Source: a virus
Direction: 5' to 3' (one strand)
Length of the DNA stretch: 64,000 nt
Virus record (IMG/VR): IMGVR_UViG_3300045256_000058
Location: 64,001-128,000 of that record
The position numbers and the translations under genes are program-made. Below are positions 4,539-62,035 of the stretch, one piece after another (the stretch's first letter is position 1; the number at the start of each line of letters is the position of its first letter). Below the pieces are notes generated by a model, which worked only from the letters and a program-made list of their open reading frames with translations, ran no database searches and had not been told where the DNA came from.

Positions 4539-7500
4539 TTAAATATAAGGACTACTTGGTGGAGTAAAGCTAGATGTATGCAATGCTGTACGTCTATACA
4601 CTAATAGCTCATCAAGATAACAGTTATACCCAGTCGTATTTAATAGATTAGTTCGTTGACCTAGAAGAATTGGGCTATTGTAATCTGAATACTCTAAAGT
4701 ATCTGCAATTGCATTACCTAGCACACCATCTATAAAATAGTAAAGTATTCCATTGCTCTTAGTAATCTCAATGTGATGAAATACACCGCTTGAATTAAAG
4801 AATGTATTTGACAAAATACTAAAGAATAACGCAGCTTCAGGTATATTGTTTCTACCAATGTATAGTGAACTTCCTTTTAGATATATTTGTAAATCAGATT
4901 GTGAATATAAACTTTGTATGTCCCCAGTGGATAATGCTTTGTTTACATTTAACCAGAATGAAATAGTAAAGTCTTCATTTAGAAAAGCATAGTCAGTTTC
5001 ATTGGGTATTTCAATATACTTGCAGATTGAATTAGCAGTTAATATTAGACTAGATGCTCCGAATTTCTTAATAGATGTAGATACACTTGCATTAGTAGTA
5101 AGTGTTTTGTTTGCTGGAGAACTATCAGTAATAACTGAATCAAAATGTAATAGAGTCACATATCTTGCAGGGTCATAGTAGTCTCTAATATATGTATTTA
5201 TCTGTACCGCTTCGTCAAATGTAATGTTTCTATTTAACACAAGTACACAACCGATATATCCTTTTACACTTCGGTCATTAAACAATCTATCTTTTGCAAT
5301 ACTATTAAAGCTTAACGTGCTTGAACTATTAAATACAATCGTATTTAGTACTTTAGGTTTAAGTAAATAAGAATTAGTGACTTCTTTACCATTTACATAT
5401 TTATGACTAGATAGTATCGATGTCGCTGTAATACCTGAATCAAATAGAATACCGTTATTACCAGAACTAAAATCATTAGTACTTGCCTGTCCAAATAGAA
5501 AAGCACGGTCAATACTGCTCTCTTTTCTAACATATCCAACTATAAATCCTTTACCTGAGATAGTAGTTGACCCTTCAAGATAACTACTACCATCAATGTC
5601 AAACTCTGCTACTGATTTATTGTTTAGTGAGGGTAACGTGGATAGAATTACGTCATGTCCTATATACTCATTAGTGTTTAATCTATAATCAGACCAATGA
5701 GTAATATTAGTTGAGCTAAGGGTAAGAGTATCTAAGTCTGGTAATAGTATTAATGTAAATGAATTAGTACCTAATAAACTCTTTAGATTCAAATAAAGAG
5801 GATTAGTACGTAACGTAATATCTACATCAAAATTGAACGTAGAATCTAATGGGATAGTATTTGTAGCTTTTACTGCAAATGTAAGTATTTCATCTCGTTC
5901 ACCAGTAAAACTTAATATGCCATTACTGTCTATTGCAGCATCATAAATGGGTGTGAGTAATTCGTAAGTAAGAGGAAGAGATTGTAAATCAACCACCTTC
6001 TTAGTTAGGTCAATAGTAATATTAGATAAAAAGCGATATTCAGTTTCCGTAGAGAATACATAAGGGGCTAATGATGAGAAATATCGATTTGCTAATACTG
6101 ATACCACTGTATTTAATTCACTATCACTTAATTTAATATTCCAGCTAGTAAAGAAAGCTAACTTACCTCTTAGTTTTTCTAACCCACTAAAGCTAATTGC
6201 AACATCATCAGGTTGTACAGCAGTAATTATGTATAGTCTGTTTAAGTCTAATTTGTAATTAAGTGTGTTAACCAGTACCTTATTACTTCTGGTAGTTAAT
6301 TTAGTAATAGGTGTTTGACCATGAATCTGACTAATAGTAGAAACTGTCCATAGTTGACCTTCTCCTTTTATATCGGAAAAGTCTTTAAGCATTGGTCGAG
6401 TACCATATGAGTCTTGAATATAAACCCATACAAATGTCTTACCAGATACACCAGCAGCTAAGTCTAATTTTTGTATTGCATTAAATTGAACAGCATCATG
6501 GCTATTGAACAAACTAACTGCATCTAACCAATTAGGCTCAAATCCAGTAGTAGCTAGAAGATAGTTAACTTCATTATTAGTAACACCAGCATTAGTTACT
6601 CGTCTAGCATCTTCCCATCTAGTGACTCTATTAGATGAATCCTTAGTAATACCATAAAAACTAGAGTCGATAGGGCTATTTTCGGCACTTAATGCAAGAG
6701 TAATATTAGTTTGCTTAGGTAATAAGGCTACTATAGGGTCAGGTCTACATACCTTTAAGCTAAACTCAAAAGTGCTAGTCATACTTGCTGAGTTAGTTAC
6801 AGCAATCTTTATAGTTCCTTCGTAAGGTGTGGTAATTGAACCACTTAATACTGAACCTGTAAAACTAAGTCCCATATCTAATGGAGTTAATAGCTCATAT
6901 GATGCAATATCAAAAAACTCATCTAATAGAATAGTAGAAAAGTCATAGCTAAAAGCTGCATCAACTAATACTTTGAATGCTGGTGTTGCAGTAGCTACAA
7001 TACCTTGATAGTTAATATACATTTCCACAAGTAATGTTTCTATCTGTTGCGTCAGCGTATTATCAATATCATTCTCAAATGTAATGATTGCAGCTATCTT
7101 ACCTTGCACACTTTGTCTAATACTTTTATTTTCTGCTCCACCTAGTTCTCCACTCTTACCACCATATCCTTGTATTACTTCTTTTTGCTCTGGATTAGAT
7201 ATGTTCTTTACTGTAAGTACTCGTACTCTATTTAACGGAACGAATGTACTAGGTGTAACTACCCTACTGTTAATACGAGACGTAGCATTATAAATAGAAC
7301 TTCCAGTATATAGTTCGTTAGACCACAAAGCATTACCTGTTCTCGGAAATGCATCATAAAATAATACCGATGGACTAGGTGTATTACGCGGAGCATAGAT
7401 AAGATAGGAGTCAGACTGTCTAGTTAGATAAACAATAATAATAGTGCCCACACTAACTGGAAACTTATAGAATAGTTGCTGTAAACTACTATCGTCAAAG

Positions 7501-19304: not shown

Positions 19305-19332
19305 TCAGCAGTATTCATCTGCGATGTAATCA
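19284..19332 (+). repeat. Tandem duplication of CAGTATTCATCTGCGATGTAATCA (24 bp x2, 1-nt spacer)
   Basis: Exact copies at 19284-19307 and 19309-19332, spanning the stop codon of 18711..19304. Confidence 0.9.
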
Positions 19333-19892
19333 ATCTTTACCAACTGAAACTGGATATTAGAGAGTAATGGTGTTAGTATATAGATAGGTAGCAAATGAAG
19401 GTGCTAACCTATGGTACTCAGAAATGATACCTAAAGGTCTTAGGTGGGAAGCACATGAAGCATTCAGTTAGGAATAGTCAAGCTAACAAGAATGATATAC
19501 CACTTCCTAAATTAGCAAGTCCTATAGAAAGGATAGAAAACAGATAGCAGCCTAACGCCAGTACATCCTTCACCTCTCTCATGGCATTGAGAAGTAAGAG
19601 GTTTACATAAAATTTTACATCCCCTCTTAGTAAGGGGTTAGGGAAACCTAGTACCTACGATAGGAAATGATACTATATGCGTACCTGTAGCTATTAGGTT
19701 GCTAATGTATTAAGTTGCTTCCGAGGTTACGAGACTACCAGAGAAGGTAGTTGAGTAAGTGAGAGATAGAATGAATGTTTGAAAGAGCATTAAGGAAATA
19801 TACACAGATAAGATGGTAAGATGTTTGCGATATTAGCGAACATCTTTTTAGTAAATGTAGGTTTTTCGGCTTTAGATATTCGAATAGCTAGT

Positions 19893-21901: not shown

Positions 21902-22321
21902 CTAGATAAGTGGACTCATTTCTGTGTTACTGTTAATGTCTTTGTTTCTCTTTATTGTTTTGTTTAGAGAGACAGGAAGGACAGGAACTTTCATTTCTTT
22001 TCTTCTTGAAATTTGATAATCTTTTTCAAGTTTCTTTTGTTCAAGTTTATTGTCTTTTCTTACAATTCGATAACGTTTTACTTCCTGCTCACTGTCTACA
22101 GGAAGATTTAATGCTGCTGAAACTTTTTGTCTGTCTTCAGGTTTCATTGGTTTGATATTATTTCCAACTGTTCCATTATTTCCAGGAGCATTCCCTCTAG
22201 GATTTGCAGGAGTAGGTGTGTTGGTTAGAGAAGCTTGGGCTAATAAGTCTGCTGCTCCGAAGTTAGAAAAAGCTTGTTTAAGAAGTTTCATGTGATTCAA
22301 AATTATCCTTGATGTTTTCAA
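21902..22321 (-). CDS. Hypothetical protein, first gene of the late strand
   Basis: ORF preceded by a candidate late promoter; AFSNF motif. Confidence 0.5.
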   Translation of the reverse strand: MKTSRIILNHMKLLKQAFSNFGAADLLAQASLTNTPTPANPRGNAPGNNGTVGNNIKPMKPEDRQKVSAALNLPVDSEQEVKRYRIVRKDNKLEQKKLEKDYQISRRKEMKVPVLPVSLNKTIKRNKDINSNTEMSPLI

Positions 22322-22812
22322 TAATCTCTTCGTTTACAGTTTTGTGACTGCGTTTACTACAATTAGTTTAGCATTTCGTGCATGAAAAATATGCCGGGAT
22401 TTCTGTGCTTTTTTTATTCTCTTTATGATTTAGGTGAGTTTGAATTATTGGGTTGGAAGCAGCCCCTTAAAAAACATCCTATCACACTCTGAAACCCCTG
22501 TCAAATAAGGCTTTCAGCCATTTTACCTCTCAATCCATAAGCTACACTTATAGTACAGATGTACGGTTAGGTATAGAGTATTCTCTATAGTAACTATAGA
22601 AAACTTTACATAGTAAATAGGTATAAATACTCTATACAATCCTGTTGAAAACTGCGATACTGTTTACAGGTTGGATAAGAGATAAGGAGGTTAAAGGATA
22701 AAACACTATGAACAATTAAATATTCTTATGGGATTGCAAGGGCTATTGCTCTTGACTTTCACAGGATAACTGTGCTTAAAATCCCGGCTAGAAAATTGGG
22801 TATTTATGCCTA

Positions 22813-22841
22813 TTGCGTTTTCTATCCGTATCCCCTAAGAT
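22813..22841 (+). promoter_or_regulatory. Sigma70-type early promoter
   Basis: TTGCGT-17 bp-TAAGAT followed by GTTTACAAGGTTGG. Confidence 0.65.
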
Positions 22842-22944
22842 GTTTACAAGGTTGGTTATGAGACAACCGACAATCAAACGATAGATTCCAAGCTATCACC
22901 CTATCAAAATTTATTCGCAGAGTCAAACTGCAAAAGGAGTACCT

Positions 22945-23427
22945 ATGGCTAAAGCCAGAAGTGTAGCTCTCCGTAAGACCTTCGCCTATGGTGTATTGGC
23001 TGTTACAAAGTCAACCGTATGGAAAGAGAAAGGTAATCCCGAAGCGGGTACGGAGGTAGTCTACTCAGTTCGCTTTAAGGTAAAGTCAGAAGTCTTAGAG
23101 CGTCTTAAAGCTCAAGGTGTGAAAAATCCTCTCAAGGATAATCCATTCCTTTTGATGCAAGATGGGGCTTCTTTCAAAAGGTTCTTTTCTAATGGTAGTG
23201 AGAAAATTACTACCTATATAAAGACTACTGACTATGCTAAAGCTGAGGAAGTTTTTAAGCGTGTAGTCTCTAGTATGAGTAGGGGTGTTAAGCCTACTAA
23301 AAAAGCTGTGATTCAAGATGTGCTGCCATCTGGTATGCGTATTGTTGAGCGTTCACAGTCTGAGTTTAGTAAAGCTTTGCTTTCTCCCTCCACACCATCT
23401 AAAAAACTATCCTTTAGCGTGAGATAA
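22945..23427 (+). CDS. Basic hypothetical early protein
   Basis: Strong RBS AAAGGAG; first plus-strand gene. Confidence 0.75.
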   Translation: MAKARSVALRKTFAYGVLAVTKSTVWKEKGNPEAGTEVVYSVRFKVKSEVLERLKAQGVKNPLKDNPFLLMQDGASFKRFFSNGSEKITTYIKTTDYAKAEEVFKRVVSSMSRGVKPTKKAVIQDVLPSGMRIVERSQSEFSKALLSPSTPSKKLSFSVR

Positions 23428-23430
23428 GCC

Positions 23431-23691
23431 ATGAAGTATGCTGTCTTAAAAACTGGCAATCACTATGCCCGTATGAATTACGCATATCAACCATGCTGTA
23501 ATACGGGTTTAGTAGAGATTGATGAGTCTATCCCTACGGATGACTATGGCAATCCCATTACTGTTGCAGACTATAAGCTAGTTGATGATTTAGCTCTAGC
23601 TACAGTTTTCCCTAAGAAGTTGGCTAAACGTTTAGTTAGGGCTGATTTATTTCTTGAGGTTATGACTGTTCAGCGTGTAATGTTCGTTTAG
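23431..23691 (+). CDS. Hypothetical early protein
   Basis: ORF directly coupled to the upstream gene. Confidence 0.65.
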   Translation: MKYAVLKTGNHYARMNYAYQPCCNTGLVEIDESIPTDDYGNPITVADYKLVDDLALATVFPKKLAKRLVRADLFLEVMTVQRVMFV

Positions 23692-23704
23692 GTATTTCTT
23701 CTTA

Positions 23705-23733
23705 TTGACTTCTGCCCATATTGGCTGTATTGT
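23705..23733 (+). promoter_or_regulatory. Sigma70-type promoter upstream of the large ncRNA region
   Basis: TTGACT-17 bp-TATTGT followed by GTTTATAGGTTGG. Confidence 0.7.
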
Positions 23734-23739
23734 GTTTAT

Positions 23740-25600
23740 AGGTTGGTTTTCTAACCTGTATTCCATGCTCTAGAGTTCGACTCTCTAGTGGGCACTGGGC
23801 TTTACGATGTACTTCGTTTATGCCCTATTAATAGCCTTGCTGTGAGGTTAAACACAGTGACATACTCTCCTGACAGAGAGGATTGGGCGTTCATAGCGCA
23901 AATTTACACTGCTACGGTAGCGGTATTGCTATCTACAGAGTGTTCTACAGTGCTTTCAATGTGCTGTAACATTAAATCGGGCTTAATATACCCGTCAAAT
24001 GTTGACAGTTTGCGATAGCTGTATGATTCACTCGCTTTTGTAGCTAAATGAACCGTAGTTTCTATGTGTAATATTTGCCGTATCTTATAACGATAGGATT
24101 GAATGCTGTGGTTGGTAGTGGTCTATATGACTAAGTAGCTAACGTGTTCCTGATGGCATATCACGGGGTATGAATAGGGGTGAGTTACTATGAACCGTAA
24201 ACTACAAATCTCGATAGCGAGCTAATCGTAACATTCGGTTAGTATATGCTTTCATCTGGCGATAGGTGCTAGTGTCCCCATAGGGGTGCTAGTATTCAAT
24301 AAGCTCGGTAGTACCATGAGGGAACGGGTGTGGAGTGCTGTTAGCCTAACAGTGCATTGATGCGTCCTAGTATGCTTGGGAATCCTAATGCTCAGACTTT
24401 ATCCGGGTAGGTGCGGAATGAGTTGCTTCTAAGGATGACTGTATAGAAAGCTGAGTCTGTAAATGTGAGCTAGAGAGGTTGCGGCTAGGGGTAGAGCTTT
24501 ATGCTACTACTTTCTACCGACTAAGTGTGCCTGCTTGAAACGGTCTTAATAAAACCGTCAAAGCGGATAACGGATGTATATCCTAGCTTAGTTATGGGGA
24601 CTGTAGTGTGTATAAAGTATATGCTGTTAGCCTAGAAGGTGTAGTGAGACTGGGAACTGATTGAAAGGGTTTGTATGATTCCCTTCCCCATTGGGATGAT
24701 TCTTATTTGAGTAGGCAGTTGCATCTTTACAGTTTGGACAGTTGGTAAGTATCGTGTAGCGGAATACACTAGACAATACCCGTATATACAAATATTACTT
24801 CCCGTCATAGTACGGGCTTTTCGGGGTACGTCAGTCACTATCCTAGTCTATGCAATGGAGAATGCGGCAATACAAGCCTTTCCTCGATTCACTATCATAG
24901 CCTATACTTACACCAAAGCGTCCCTAAATGTAAAGATAAATTGTATCCCCGGTATTCCCATATAAACAATATCGTGTTACCGCTTCCTAATGCACAATGA
25001 TGCTGTGGGGGCTGTTTTGTGCTGTCTGGAAGTATTGCACGGTATTGGGGATAAGGTAGACTCTACTACTCTTCACTATGAAGAAAAGTAGGCTCTATGG
25101 AAGGGCAGTAAGTAAGTATCTAGCTATATGTCCTCTCTTTGGACATGGCTCCCTACATAAGCGTAGTATAAGGATTATCTCAAGCATAATTCTTCGACTT
25201 ACCTATGGCTATGGGTTCGAGAATAAGTGTGAAGCGAAGCTAACAAGGAGTACGGCTATTTACGGAAAGCTGCGTCTGTCATTGCGATAGGCTGCAAACT
25301 GACCATAGAGACAAAATGAATCGGAACGCTGAGTGTGTAGTGTTCTATTGAGGTATTGCATTCTAGTTCATGTTACTCCTGACTAGCGTGTAAGTTCCAT
25401 ATCGGGTGATGGCTGTCTCAGTAATTATAAATGCGCGAAGTAACATTCCAATGCGCTATGGAGGGAGGTAGGGTAATGAGAGACAGTCATGGGAGTTCAT
25501 TATACAGATAGTCCCTCTCTTCCAAAAGGGGCTTCTGTTATCTCTTAAGTAATCCCAGTGAGAGAGTATATAGTATGAGTTAGCAATAACTCTAGCTAGT
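23740..25600 (+). ncRNA. Candidate giant structured ncRNA (~1.8 kb)
   Basis: No credible ORF; many local hairpins and at least eight nested long-range helices, including one joining 23862-23869 to 25562-25569. Confidence 0.65.
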
Positions 25601-25778
25601 TAGAAATAGGTTAATAGCTTGTTTCTACCTAGTGAAAGATACTGTGTACTCTCAATATTCTGGTTACGCTTACCTTCTGGTGCAAGTCCAGATAGAGGTA
25701 TGGGTATCGTACCCTATAGAGTCTAGGCTATTACGGCTTAGGCTCAATTTGTCATGCAAACTTATTGAGGTCAGTCTC

Positions 25779-28700
25779 ATGTCTCTTTGGCTTGTTGCTC
25801 CTACTTCTCTAAATGGAATCTTTGCTCACAAGCAATCCGTTTGGAAGGAAGACATCTACGAAATTGTAGAAGGAACAATAGAGGATGATGTTACTTTTCT
25901 ATTGTTCATGGATGGTAAGCCCTATTGTGTGGGTACTGACCTTGATGAATTAAAAGACTATGCTCTAAACGGCTAGTCTAATTAGTCGAGTAATAGAGAT
26001 TTATAACCTCTATCACTACTATAAGTAATCAATACAGGATGCTGGTTGTAGCTACAAGATTTCGTATGCTCCTAGCTCCTAATTTGTGTTGACTGTAGTG
26101 TGTTAGTTATGTTCTCTGTTGCTCTCTTCTGTATGACTGTTCACCTTATCTAGTCATGCTAGGAGGGGTAATGACTTGTGATGCCTGCTCGTAGTCCACC
26201 TTATTTTCTAACCATCATGGTTGTTCAATTTTACAACGGACACAAAAACATTCATCTTAATGTTGAACTGGATAGGCTGCATCCTGACTGTAATGTAAGA
26301 GCTATTGGAAGAGTGGGTAGAGATAAGTATTCTGAGCTTCCTACTTTTGAATCCGATAATTTTACTAGCTGTCTGGTAAAAGCTTCTCAATGGTGTGCAT
26401 TGAATGGATTCTTTCCGGTAGAAAACGGCAAAGTAGTTGAATACGTCTAGCTAAGGAGAAACATGGAAGGTAAACCCATCGAACTAAATATCTCAAATGA
26501 GTTTCCTGCTAACGGGGAAATTGTTATTCGAGTTCGATACGTTGCTAAAGATGCAAGACGAAAAGCAATGTTGTCTGTGTACGTTAGTGAGAACTGGTTA
26601 GCTGAGTGGGGATTGCATTCTACCGCTCGTTTCATGAATCAACGGCTCCAAAAAGATTGGGGTAATCCTCCTCTAGAGGTAGAAGCCTCCAATAAAGGCT
26701 ATCGAGTAGCTAGGCAAGCTGTGTTTGGTGATAAAGATAACTCTCCTTGGTCACACATTCAAATTGCGGCTTTTAGAGAGATGGTAGATATACTCTCTGA
26801 GTTTCAAGCTCATACTGCCTATCTAGATGCCCTTCGCAGTTCGGTTCCTGATGAAATGTTCTTTACTCTGGTGAAGTAATGCGTGTAATCGGTCAAGAAT
26901 CAAATTCAGCTTTTCAACAAGAAGCTGAACCACTATTAGCGGCAAACGGGATTTTAATTGTCCCTACTGTGTTTGATATGTCTAGCACTGGGTCTAAAGG
27001 TGTAGCAATTCGAGTCTACATTACGAATCACAGTCTGGATATAATTAGTCAACGTCAGAGTCTTTCTGAGCCTCCCATTTTGCCTTTACTTGGTTATGTG
27101 TCTTCTAGCTGGGGTGAAGCATCTCATGTATTTCCAGAGAGTAGAAACATTGCTTTCGAGAAGGATTTTGCTCCTGATGTTCCTGGTCATTTCATTGACC
27201 GTTGGATAAAGAATTTCTCTACTCAAGTCTTAGAAGAGTGGAGTTTCATTCTTTCTCATGTGCAAAAGAACACATCGGTTACGGTCACTCCTTCTGAGTT
27301 CCAAAATGGATTCTTTGGGATTACCTCTGCTTAGTTCGTTCATTACGTCCACATCATCAAGGTACAAAATTATGACTTCTGCTACACTTGTACGTCCTGC
27401 CTATACTCCTGTTCTCAAAGCCGACTTAGAACAAGGGGAAGAAAAGATTTCCAAGCTCGTTGATAAGTGGAAAGCTCTAAACCCCGGCAAAAGTGTGAAT
27501 CTCCGAATTACCTTTGCAATGTTTAACTCTGCTGAGAGCCTTACTCAAAAGTATGAGGCTGCAAAAACTCGGCTTCAACATTGGTATCAGGATGCAATCA
27601 TTACTGAGCGTCAAATGAAAGAAGCGCTATCTGAAATCGGTAAACTGTATCGAACATTCATCGGTATCTCTGCTAACTACGCAAATAAGCGTCAGTACAA
27701 CGGCAAAACCGAAAACATTGTTTGGATGGAATTCTAGTTTTTGTGTGGGTTACTTCTCCTTACCCTAATGGGGTTGCTCTTAGCGAGTGACCCCTTTTTT
27801 CTTAAGAGAAAGTTCCTTTTTTCATGCAAACCTTTACCTTTTTCTACCATCATGGCAAGCACTGGAATTACTGACCTTGAAACCCTTCATTCTTTGAAAG
27901 AGGAGTATTTTCCTCACGACACCCCTACTCTTCCTGATTCCGTTATCTATGCGGAAGATGCTGAACTGCTAATGCGTCTTTCAACACACGACCCTGTGCA
28001 TGGTTATCGGATTGTAAATGAATGGAAGCCCGTAGCAGCAGATGAAACCTACTGTCATGTGCAGGAAGTGAATTTCAAGATGTTCACTGTAACCCCTCGC
28101 TTAGATACTTCTGACCGTGCTGCAAGCCACTATCTGACTCCACAAGAGCGGGATATGTTGTTCCGTACTTGGTTATATCGTGGTTTTTCTCCTGCTGTGT
28201 CCATTCATCCGTATCTTCAGCCTGCACAGGATATTCTGTAATGTCAGAATCAATACCATCTCACTCTATGAAATATCTCCCTCTTTTTCTGGTGTTTTTA
28301 ACATCTGTAACCATTAGCACGTTCGAGCTATTGGCTATGGGTATTTCAGGATGGCTACTATATGCTCTCCCATTATGGAAAGCCGCAATTGCAGTAGCTC
28401 TAGGGTTGTTATCAACCTACGTCATGATTGATGCTTTCTCCAAGCTTCAGATTCAGCTCAACAAACACATTACTCGGAAATTACAGAATGATTCTTGACT
28501 TCATTGCTGTTGGGTTGGTGGGGATGGTCTTACGTCCCCTATTTGACCGTTATGTAGTCAATCCTATTGCTGCATGGATTACGATTTGTCAAATGAATGA
28601 TTGTGGAGACTAAATGCACTATCACGTTCTTGAGTCTGAAGGTAAGTTCATTGCACACCCTATGATTCGTGTAATTCACGGTGTGCTGACTTCTGATATT

Positions 28701-45028: not shown

Positions 45029-45563
45029 GAGCTAACAATGGAAGAATTAGAACTAGAACAGATTCAAACAGATGAATCTCAACCCGTTAATGATGCTGAT
45101 TTACTAAAGCAATTTGAACACTATTCTGCTGCTCAATTATTGCTCGGTAGCAAGTTGGCTGAAGCCTTTAAGACTCACCCCAATTCAGCCTCTATCGTTG
45201 ATTCGATGTCTGCTCGTATCCCTGATGGCGAGGATTTAGATTTCTACGATGGTATTGCCGCTGGATTACTTTACGCAGCATTAGTCATTCAATCTAATGA
45301 ATGGGAAGATGAAATGCTAGGGAATCTGTCGCTAATGCTAACTGCATTAAGTGAATATACGGATACCCCTGGTTTGGATTTACTGCATGAGTCTGAAGTA
45401 TTAGCACTTCTTCGTCAAGTTCCTGATTTGGATGAGAATTACGACGAAACAATGCAAGAGATTAACGCAATGCTCGATTCAGAAGGTCTGGAACTCGAAA
45501 CTGAGTTGTTTTCCAACGAAGAATAGAGTAGAATGATATAGGGGAGTTCTTACTTCCCTTTTT

Positions 45564-57733: not shown

Positions 57734-57855
57734 GCGGCGTTGGTGTAATGGTAGCATCTAACAGCAAAAACCCCTCTTAGTGTAGAGGTTCAGCAATTTA
57801 ATTAGCTTATTTTCTTTGAACGAAAAAGGAGAGGGTTCGAGTCCCTCACGCCGCT
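57734..57855 (+). ncRNA. tRNA-like RNA with a 51-nt insertion carrying two CAGCAA motifs (element 4)
   Basis: Perfect acceptor stem, D arm, anticodon arm (loop TTTGAAC) and T arm; insertion at 57759-57809. Confidence 0.8.
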
Positions 57856-61984: not shown

Positions 61985-62035
61985 GCGGGGCTTGTGAGGA
62001 CAGTGTACATTCGGGGTTCGACTCCCCTCCCCGCA
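61985..62035 (+). ncRNA. Anticodon-less mini tRNA-like RNA
   Basis: GCGGGG/CCCCGC acceptor-like stem, GGGG-TTCGACT-CCCC T arm, only ~21 nt between them. Confidence 0.6.

Follow-up and report, generated by a model that had tools for sequence, protein, structure and literature searches.

A long ORF-free region with a putative early promoter and a structured 3' end in an uncultured cyanophage-like virus

Gene organization around the ORF-free gap

The window analyzed in this study is a stretch of 64,000 nt, corresponding to bases 64001-128000 of a 146,347-bp IMG/VR virus record that is rated complete. The large terminase (TerL) is 39% identical to the TerL of the Pseudanabaena phages PA-SR01 and Pam2 and 56-70% identical to terminases on uncultured contigs, one of which is binned with a Chroococcidiopsis MAG. 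Judged by these identities, the source is an uncultured cyanophage-like virus that lacks close sequenced relatives. Many TerL proteins of this phage group (P0008-P0012, P0017, P0021, P0028, P0031-P0035, P0039, P0045, and P0048) contain intein and homing-endonuclease domains (Intein_splicing, LAGLIDADG_3, Hint), which are absent from the window's own terminase. Near the terminase gene there is also a 588-nt ORF-free stretch (19305-19892), in which the lowest plus-strand folding z-score of 200-nt windows is -4.7.

The structural genes are oriented leftward and extend to 22321; they are followed by a 623-nt divergent junction, two small plus-strand genes (22945-23691), the gap that is the subject of this study, and a long run of plus-strand early genes. 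The two small early genes, both gene calls with a positive coding score, encode proteins of 160 aa (22945-23427) and 86 aa (23431-23691). The first gene after the gap (25779-25976, plus strand) encodes 65 aa and is located inside a structured stretch spanning 25740-26240. The proteins flanking the gap on both sides are orphans; the 160-aa protein, for instance, matched only itself among 5.8 billion proteins. No other ORF-free stretch of the 146-kb genome is as long as the gap itself (23692-25778, approximately 2.1 kb), and those that come next in length hold tRNA genes.

The gap is non-coding and non-repetitive. A previous reading of the sequence alone (hereafter the sequence-only reading) had described about 1.9 kb without a credible ORF, and this holds: the largest ORF within 23692-25778 does not exceed 76 aa. 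Gene calls on three identical contigs leave the gap empty, save one 70-aa call on a short contig. When scored with a codon-phase Markov model that was trained on long ORFs of the phage itself, each of the six frames is negative between 23626 and 25780, whereas the flanking genes give positive scores. Stop codons occur as often as in shuffled sequence (147 versus 148 ± 8) and the longest open run (87 codons) is close to the shuffle median (85 codons); the gap is therefore not a recently broken gene. Recoding of stop codons was likewise rejected, with all three stop codons present in all six frames and a longest run of 171 codons after recoding any single one of them. Six read-through translations of the gap gave no match in Pfam or PHROGs, and no iterons, tandem repeats, or significant inverted repeats were found in it.

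The base composition of the gap differs from that of the genome. Its GC content is 0.42, versus 0.366 for the genome and 0.356 for the true divergent junction, with a GC skew of +0.14, and GGG is found 38 times, a two- to threefold enrichment compared with equal-length early-gene controls (10-19). The gap lacks ten tetramers, compared with 2.1 in shuffles; since each control region of the genome is likewise missing 5-12, this avoidance is genome-wide and not specific to the gap. GATC and GGCC are both missing from the gap.

BLASTn in distant mode against 50,697 phage records yielded nothing useful, and no host source sequence was found among the 401 cyanobacterial genomes searched. Three short matches were considered. 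The first (26 of 27 nt identical, per-genome E-value about 3e-4) aligns window positions 25010-25036 with the N-terminal coding part of an IS110-family transposase gene (L020 contig C175, Chroococcidiopsis MAG), the second (29 nt) lies inside a large coding gene of another cyanobacterium, and the third (22 nt) is located in an intergenic spacer of a third genome. A decayed IS110 element was rejected, as neither DEDD_Tnp_IS110 nor Transposase_20 matched at E-values up to 10 with stops read through; a tBLASTn search for the IS110 transposase in the phage recovered just the seven residues beneath the 27-nt match. The 27- and 29-nt matches, both located in unrelated protein genes, are best regarded as chance; the former is probably fortuitous, and the 22-nt match was judged in the same way.

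The putative early promoters and transcript boundaries

A TTGACT-17-TATTGT promoter had been proposed to precede the gap. This sequence is present at 23705-23733, with the -35 hexamer TTGACT at 23705-23710 and the -10 hexamer TATTGT at 23728-23733 (9 of 12 positions matching), and it is directly followed by a copy of a repeated motif (23734-23746). Taken alone, the hexamers carry little weight: promoter-like hexamer pairs occur at chance density between 22000 and 27000 (12 versus 11.5 expected), and the credibility of this putative early promoter (P3, 23705-23746, plus strand) derives solely from the repeated motif. This 13-nt motif, GTTTAYA(A)GGTTGG, forms a small family: the 146-kb genome contains exactly three copies (at 22662, 22842, and 23734), which share the plus strand, fall within 1.1 kb, and each lie directly 3' of a -10-like hexamer. 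The first copy (22662-22674) directly follows GATACT and marks the putative early promoter P1, the second (22842-22855) follows TAAGAT upstream of the 160-aa gene and marks P2, and the third heads the gap. The predicted start of transcription at P3 is near 23740.

A terminator-like hairpin of 11 bp with a weak T-tail (25719-25745, plus strand) represents a candidate 3' end of a non-coding transcript. Terminator-like hairpins are enriched across 22000-27000 (9 versus 2.8 ± 1.7 in shuffles); the gap itself holds five, distributed over both strands. In this area, the strongest promoter-like match (10 of 12) is found on the minus strand at 25451-25424, and minus-strand terminator-like hairpins are located at 24573-24555 and 23994-23978. 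Because of these minus-strand signals, the gap may comprise several units or be transcribed in antisense.

The 5' end of the gap overlaps with a tRNA-like remnant (23713-23795, plus strand). It consists of a canonical T-arm (TAGAG TTCGACT CTCTA, 23771-23787) and a 7-bp acceptor-like stem (23713-23719/23788-23794), has no D-arm and no CCA, and shows an odd anticodon loop; neither ARAGORN nor the Rfam tRNA model calls a tRNA here. The 5' strand of the remnant lies inside the P3 spacer, and a full cloverleaf and a start at 23740 are therefore mutually exclusive. The remnant was also considered as an attachment-site copy of a host tRNA end, which was rejected given that no tRNA 3' end matched in the 401 cyanobacterial genomes. 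Two more canonical T-arm hairpins are found in the tRNA region of the window, at 57826-57842 (GAGGG TTCGAGT CCCTC) and 62007-62023 (CGGGG TTCGACT CCCCT). Both are uncalled by ARAGORN and Rfam, and they may be degenerate or unusual tRNA-like genes.

Long-range helices and folding of the body

The sequence-only reading had further proposed that the gap encodes one globally folded RNA of about 1.8 kb, held together by consistently nested long-range helices. We found all helix strings at the positions given for them, three requiring one G-U pair. Their frequency and nesting, taken as proof of one fold, are nevertheless at the level of shuffled sequence. Perfectly complementary words of 7-11 nt within 23740-25600 are as numerous as in dinucleotide shuffles; the counts are 126 versus 122 ± 12.5 for k = 7, and those for longer words are 27 versus 31.7 (k = 8), 5 versus 7.8 (k = 9), and 1 versus 1.9 (k = 10). 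Long-range helices, defined as at least 7 bp with at most one G-U pair and a span of at least 150 nt, number 554 compared with 542 ± 36 in shuffles. The longest strictly nested chain comprises 23 helices, and shuffles give chains of 18-27, so that eight nested helices can always be found.

The partition function of 23740-25790 assigns mean pair probabilities of 0.000-0.004 to 10 of the 12 scored helix segments. Among these is the 11-bp helix 25409-25419/25480-25490, which had been thought to close a separate domain. The helix 25093-25100/25303-25310 fares better, being the only scored segment that is part of the minimum free energy (MFE) structure (0.69). At 25562-25569, GAGAGTAT is predicted to pair locally with 25648-25655 and not with its proposed distant partner.

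Folding energies point in the same direction. The whole 2011-nt region has an MFE z-score of -5.5 (27 shuffles; the z-scores of long segments are based on 15-27 shuffles), and by the segment-wise predictions this value derives mostly from the 3' end. Across 23701-25401, the z-scores of 200-nt windows vary between -3.3 and +0.9, resembling those of the genes on both flanks. For 500-nt windows the plus-strand z-scores are -2.5, -0.7, -1.2, and -4.1 and the minus-strand z-scores -5.4, -2.4, -1.3, and -0.45, with coding neighbors ranging from 0 to -5.2. Of the two 881-nt halves of the body, the first has z-scores of -2.84 (plus strand) and -3.59 (minus strand), the second -1.64 and -0.66. The body (23740-25480, z -1.6 to -2.8) thus folds comparably to neighboring genes and shows no strand preference. 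The sequence-only reading had taken the G-U pairs as favoring a plus-strand RNA over DNA palindromes; the 5' half of the body folds as strongly or more strongly on the minus strand. Folding energy no better than that of shuffles, one of the outcomes named in that reading as refuting, is largely what 23740-25480 shows. With helices at chance level, thermodynamically disfavored, and a body that folds like its neighbors, the proposed 1.8-kb global fold receives no support; it is disfavored at most, because thermodynamic prediction over 2 kb is unreliable for RNAs that are stabilized by tertiary contacts.

The structured 3' domain and the G-rich motif

The end of the gap behaves differently. Its 3' domain (25480-25790, plus strand) is strongly structured (z -6.3, none of 100 shuffles being as stable), includes a Y-shaped hairpin at 25562-25655, and is plus-strand-specific. 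The same strand dependence is seen in the last of the 500-nt windows given above, which spans 25240-25739 (plus strand -4.1, minus strand -0.45). A second strongly structured plus-strand stretch (25740-26240, z -5.9) extends over the 65-aa gene together with its downstream 200-nt spacer, and the structure of both stretches is much weaker on the minus strand. Compared with the z-scores of the body, these values confine the strong RNA-type structure, as predicted by folding, to approximately 25.5-26.2 kb, a region straddling the end of the gap, the terminator-like hairpin at 25719-25745, and the first downstream gene.

Directly upstream of the 3' domain lies a 20-nt G-rich motif, GGAGGGAGGTAGGGTAATGA (25460-25479, plus strand), which is the sole sequence that the gap has in common with the analogous gap of a related virus described below. 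A scan for the exact motif across IMG/VR found it nowhere outside its own genome. A covariance model of 25556-25750, searched over 14 sources including relatives, recovered only itself. The spacer after the 65-aa gene ends in AGGAGGGGTAATGA (26161-26174), which resembles the conserved motif at 25466-25479.

Comparison with related phages

Other contigs carrying the flanking proteins are 99.97-100% identical to the window and therefore provide no sequence variation to use; the identical contigs originate from the samples SRR35386017 and JGI 3300045136 and 3300044960. With flanking proteins that are orphans and contigs that are nearly identical, relatives had to be reached from the terminase. 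Protein-anchored searches of IMG/VR, JGI metagenomes, and GTDB genomes, based on the 160-aa protein, on TerL, and on an aligned set for the 328-aa neighbor, added no informative locus other than the Chroococcidiopsis MAG contig.

One positional analogue was found on L011, a 145-kb contig whose TerL is 56% identical to that of the window phage. Here the divergent junction is followed by three small genes and then by a 1.8-kb ORF-free unit. The unit opens with a terminator hairpin, followed by a promoter-like repeat that is also present in the L011 junction. About 240 nt before its end, the unit carries the 20-nt motif, and a terminator-like hairpin lies downstream of this motif. The two units have only GGAGGGNGGTAGGGTAATGA in common (19 of 20 bases), which has the same orientation in both and lies 240-320 nt from their 3' ends; we estimate a probability of chance occurrence of roughly 0.001-0.02 after multiple comparisons. 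Short ORFs starting at an ATG within the G-rich motif are not conserved between the window phage and L011. Likewise, nhmmer and BLASTn comparisons of the gap with the PA-SR01 and Pam2 gaps and the loci of eight relatives returned the 20-nt motif only. Judged from these alignments, sequence turnover between the window phage and the L011 unit is almost complete. Covariation support for the long-range helices had been envisaged from nhmmer homologues; no alignable homologue was obtained, the L011 analogue sharing just 20 nt.

A second ORF-free unit of about 2 kb is absent from six other relatives whose contigs show this region (L008, L017, L018, L019, L031, and L032), and is therefore not a core feature of the group; the two isolated phages PA-SR01 and Pam2 do not have a matching second unit either. 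The junctions of L008, L011, L017, L018, and L032 include 0.9-1.3 kb without ORFs, L031 is densely packed throughout, and the junctions of PA-SR01 and Pam2 measure 1.4-1.8 kb and are unrelated in sequence. PA-SR01 (MT234670) and Pam2 (ON014754) resemble the window phage, which belongs to the same phage group, in having an ORF-free region between the early genes and the terminase module. In these two phages, however, the region is the divergent junction itself, whereas the window phage has a 623-nt junction, two genes, and a separate 2.1-kb unit.

An Rfam search of the loci of four relatives detected one tRNA only. A 15-nt motif, GGAGTCCCGTTTCCT, occurs exactly in early-side non-coding regions of four relatives, on the minus strand (L008:1638-1652, L011:5243-5257, L017:8172-8186, and two copies in L018 at 4831-4845 and 5396-5410), and is absent from the window. 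It could serve as a regulatory site or represent a small RNA in this phage group.

Comparison with known non-coding RNAs

There is no match to a known RNA family in Rfam, either at the gathering score or at E-values up to 10 across 23400-26000. This includes the covariance models of GOLLD (RF01998), ROOL (RF03087), and OLE (RF01071), which gave no match even at an E-value of 10, and those of group I and group II introns, RNase P, tmRNA, 6S, and other catalogued RNAs, none of which matched in the gap. No interrupted gene flanks the gap.

GOLLD, ROOL, and OLE (PMC12286853, PMC5737381) are nonetheless similar to the gap in being large non-coding elements, in their phage context, and in their GC enrichment relative to an AT-rich genome. 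They are often located next to tRNA genes, whereas the nearest tRNA gene of the gap is found at 45563, 20 kb away, with the degenerate remnant at 23713-23795 alone close by. Unlike these RNAs, the gap has no conserved sequence blocks and a body with ordinary folding energy.

Closer parallels may be drawn with lytic phages, in which ORF-less spaces yield abundant long non-coding RNAs of unknown function (PMC7567579, PMC9241854). Phage ICP1 produces a non-coding RNA of about 800 nt from such a space (PMC7567579), and phage K encodes lnc001 and lnc002 (635 and 1154 nt), one of which was reported to have its own early promoter (PMC9241854). Like these loci, the gap is an ORF-less stretch of 0.6 kb or more located in a lytic phage, and it belongs to no catalogued RNA family; its early-type promoter, predicted from the sequence, may be a further parallel. 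The ICP1 and phage K RNAs were seen by RNA-seq, whereas the gap unit is known from its sequence. It is also about twice as long, with strong predicted structure at its 3' end only, and BLASTn against phage records found no sequence similarity to them.

Interpretation of the gap

We tentatively interpret the gap as giving rise to an early, promoter-led RNA, either a long non-coding transcript or a leader, that is structured in its 3' domain and does not form one ornate fold of 1.8 kb. Our confidence in this interpretation stays a little below even, because we infer transcription, as we do the transcript ends and the function of the gap. Host RNA polymerase would initiate close to 23740, using the third member of the family of related immediate-early promoters, and would transcribe about 2 kb of untranslated RNA. 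Transcription would then end or pause at the hairpin at 25719-25745, or continue as a long leader into the 65-aa gene. The upstream 1.7 kb or so of this RNA would be loosely structured, with defined structure in the last 300 nt or so beside the G-rich motif. This motif and the 3' domain (the last 350 nt or so) likely represent the functional part, and the 3' domain may serve in transcript stabilization or termination, in the control of downstream genes, or in the binding of a factor.

Alternatively, the gap may be functionless filler, consisting of long-decayed accessory early genes or acquired non-coding DNA, in which only the boundary elements (the 5' promoter and the 3' structured leader or terminator) work. 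This is unlikely, but it accounts for several of our results, namely the nearly complete turnover with respect to L011, the absence of the unit from most relatives, the random-like ORF statistics, the ordinary folding of the body, and a base composition that resembles the neighboring early genes. The GC content and the G-runs, in contrast, have been held above the genome average and the true spacer, which is unexpected after a decay that erased every coding trace and which argues against pure junk. Moreover, phage genomes seldom retain as much as 2 kb of junk, a unit alike in length, position, and promoter arrangement is present in two phages, and the cyanobacterial genomes searched provide no source sequence.

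The gap could also act at the DNA level, as a replication origin, a packaging or genome-end region, or an injection-pause region resembling the non-coding segment within the first-step-transfer DNA of phage T5. We consider this improbable. The gap adjoins the junction between divergent early and structural genes, ORF-free junction DNA is also present in five relatives and in PA-SR01 and Pam2, and the 5' half folds without plus-strand preference, all of which would suit such an element. However, it contains none of the repeat types searched for, has no AT-rich unwinding region, being GC-richer than the genome, and its 3' structure is strand-specific, as expected of RNA.

A single giant ornate RNA of about 1.8-2 kb, closed by the long-range helices discussed above, is more doubtful still. 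The z-score of the whole region, the putative promoter heading the unit, and the excess of G over C together with the GGG enrichment, which fit an RNA with G-U pairs, would agree with it. Against it stand the chance-level helices with ensemble probabilities near zero in 10 of 12 segments, a whole-region z-score contributed mostly by the 3' end (with body halves comparable to coding neighbors), the lack of any Rfam match at an E-value of 10, a positional analogue that shares no block beyond 20 nt, and a 3'-domain covariance model that finds nothing in relatives. Nearly complete sequence turnover and a patchy distribution also argue against an ornate, tightly constrained RNA. We give equally little credence to a variant in which the whole unit of about 2 kb would function as a single early RNA, about double GOLLD in size, that evolves very fast in sequence, has an architecture missed by thermodynamic prediction, and is anchored by the tRNA-like 5' module, the 20-nt G-rich motif, and the 3' domain. 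Finally, it is barely credible that ORF-length filters overlooked a cluster of very small early genes (33-76 aa). Plus-strand ORFs of 76, 70, 36, 36, and 33 aa do exist, and the 70-aa one is the single call on a short contig, which would favor such a cluster. Against it, the coding score of the gap is negative in every frame, the ORFs have no family matches, the two longest have no upstream Shine-Dalgarno sequence, ORF lengths equal those of shuffled sequence, and the ORFs remain uncalled on the long contigs.

At present, the main value of this analysis is corrective: lists of complementary words of 6-9 nt across 2 kb are uninformative, because about 20 such helices can be strung into a nested chain even in shuffles. 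For experiments, the realistic target shrinks to about 350 nt (25460-25790) and the promoter motif family. If the early, promoter-led unit favored here is transcribed, it would rank among the longest phage non-coding units on record, and no earlier one has been noted in this uncultured cyanophage group. In that case it would also be a useful example of a long phage RNA that has kept its position, length, and promoter arrangement but not its sequence.
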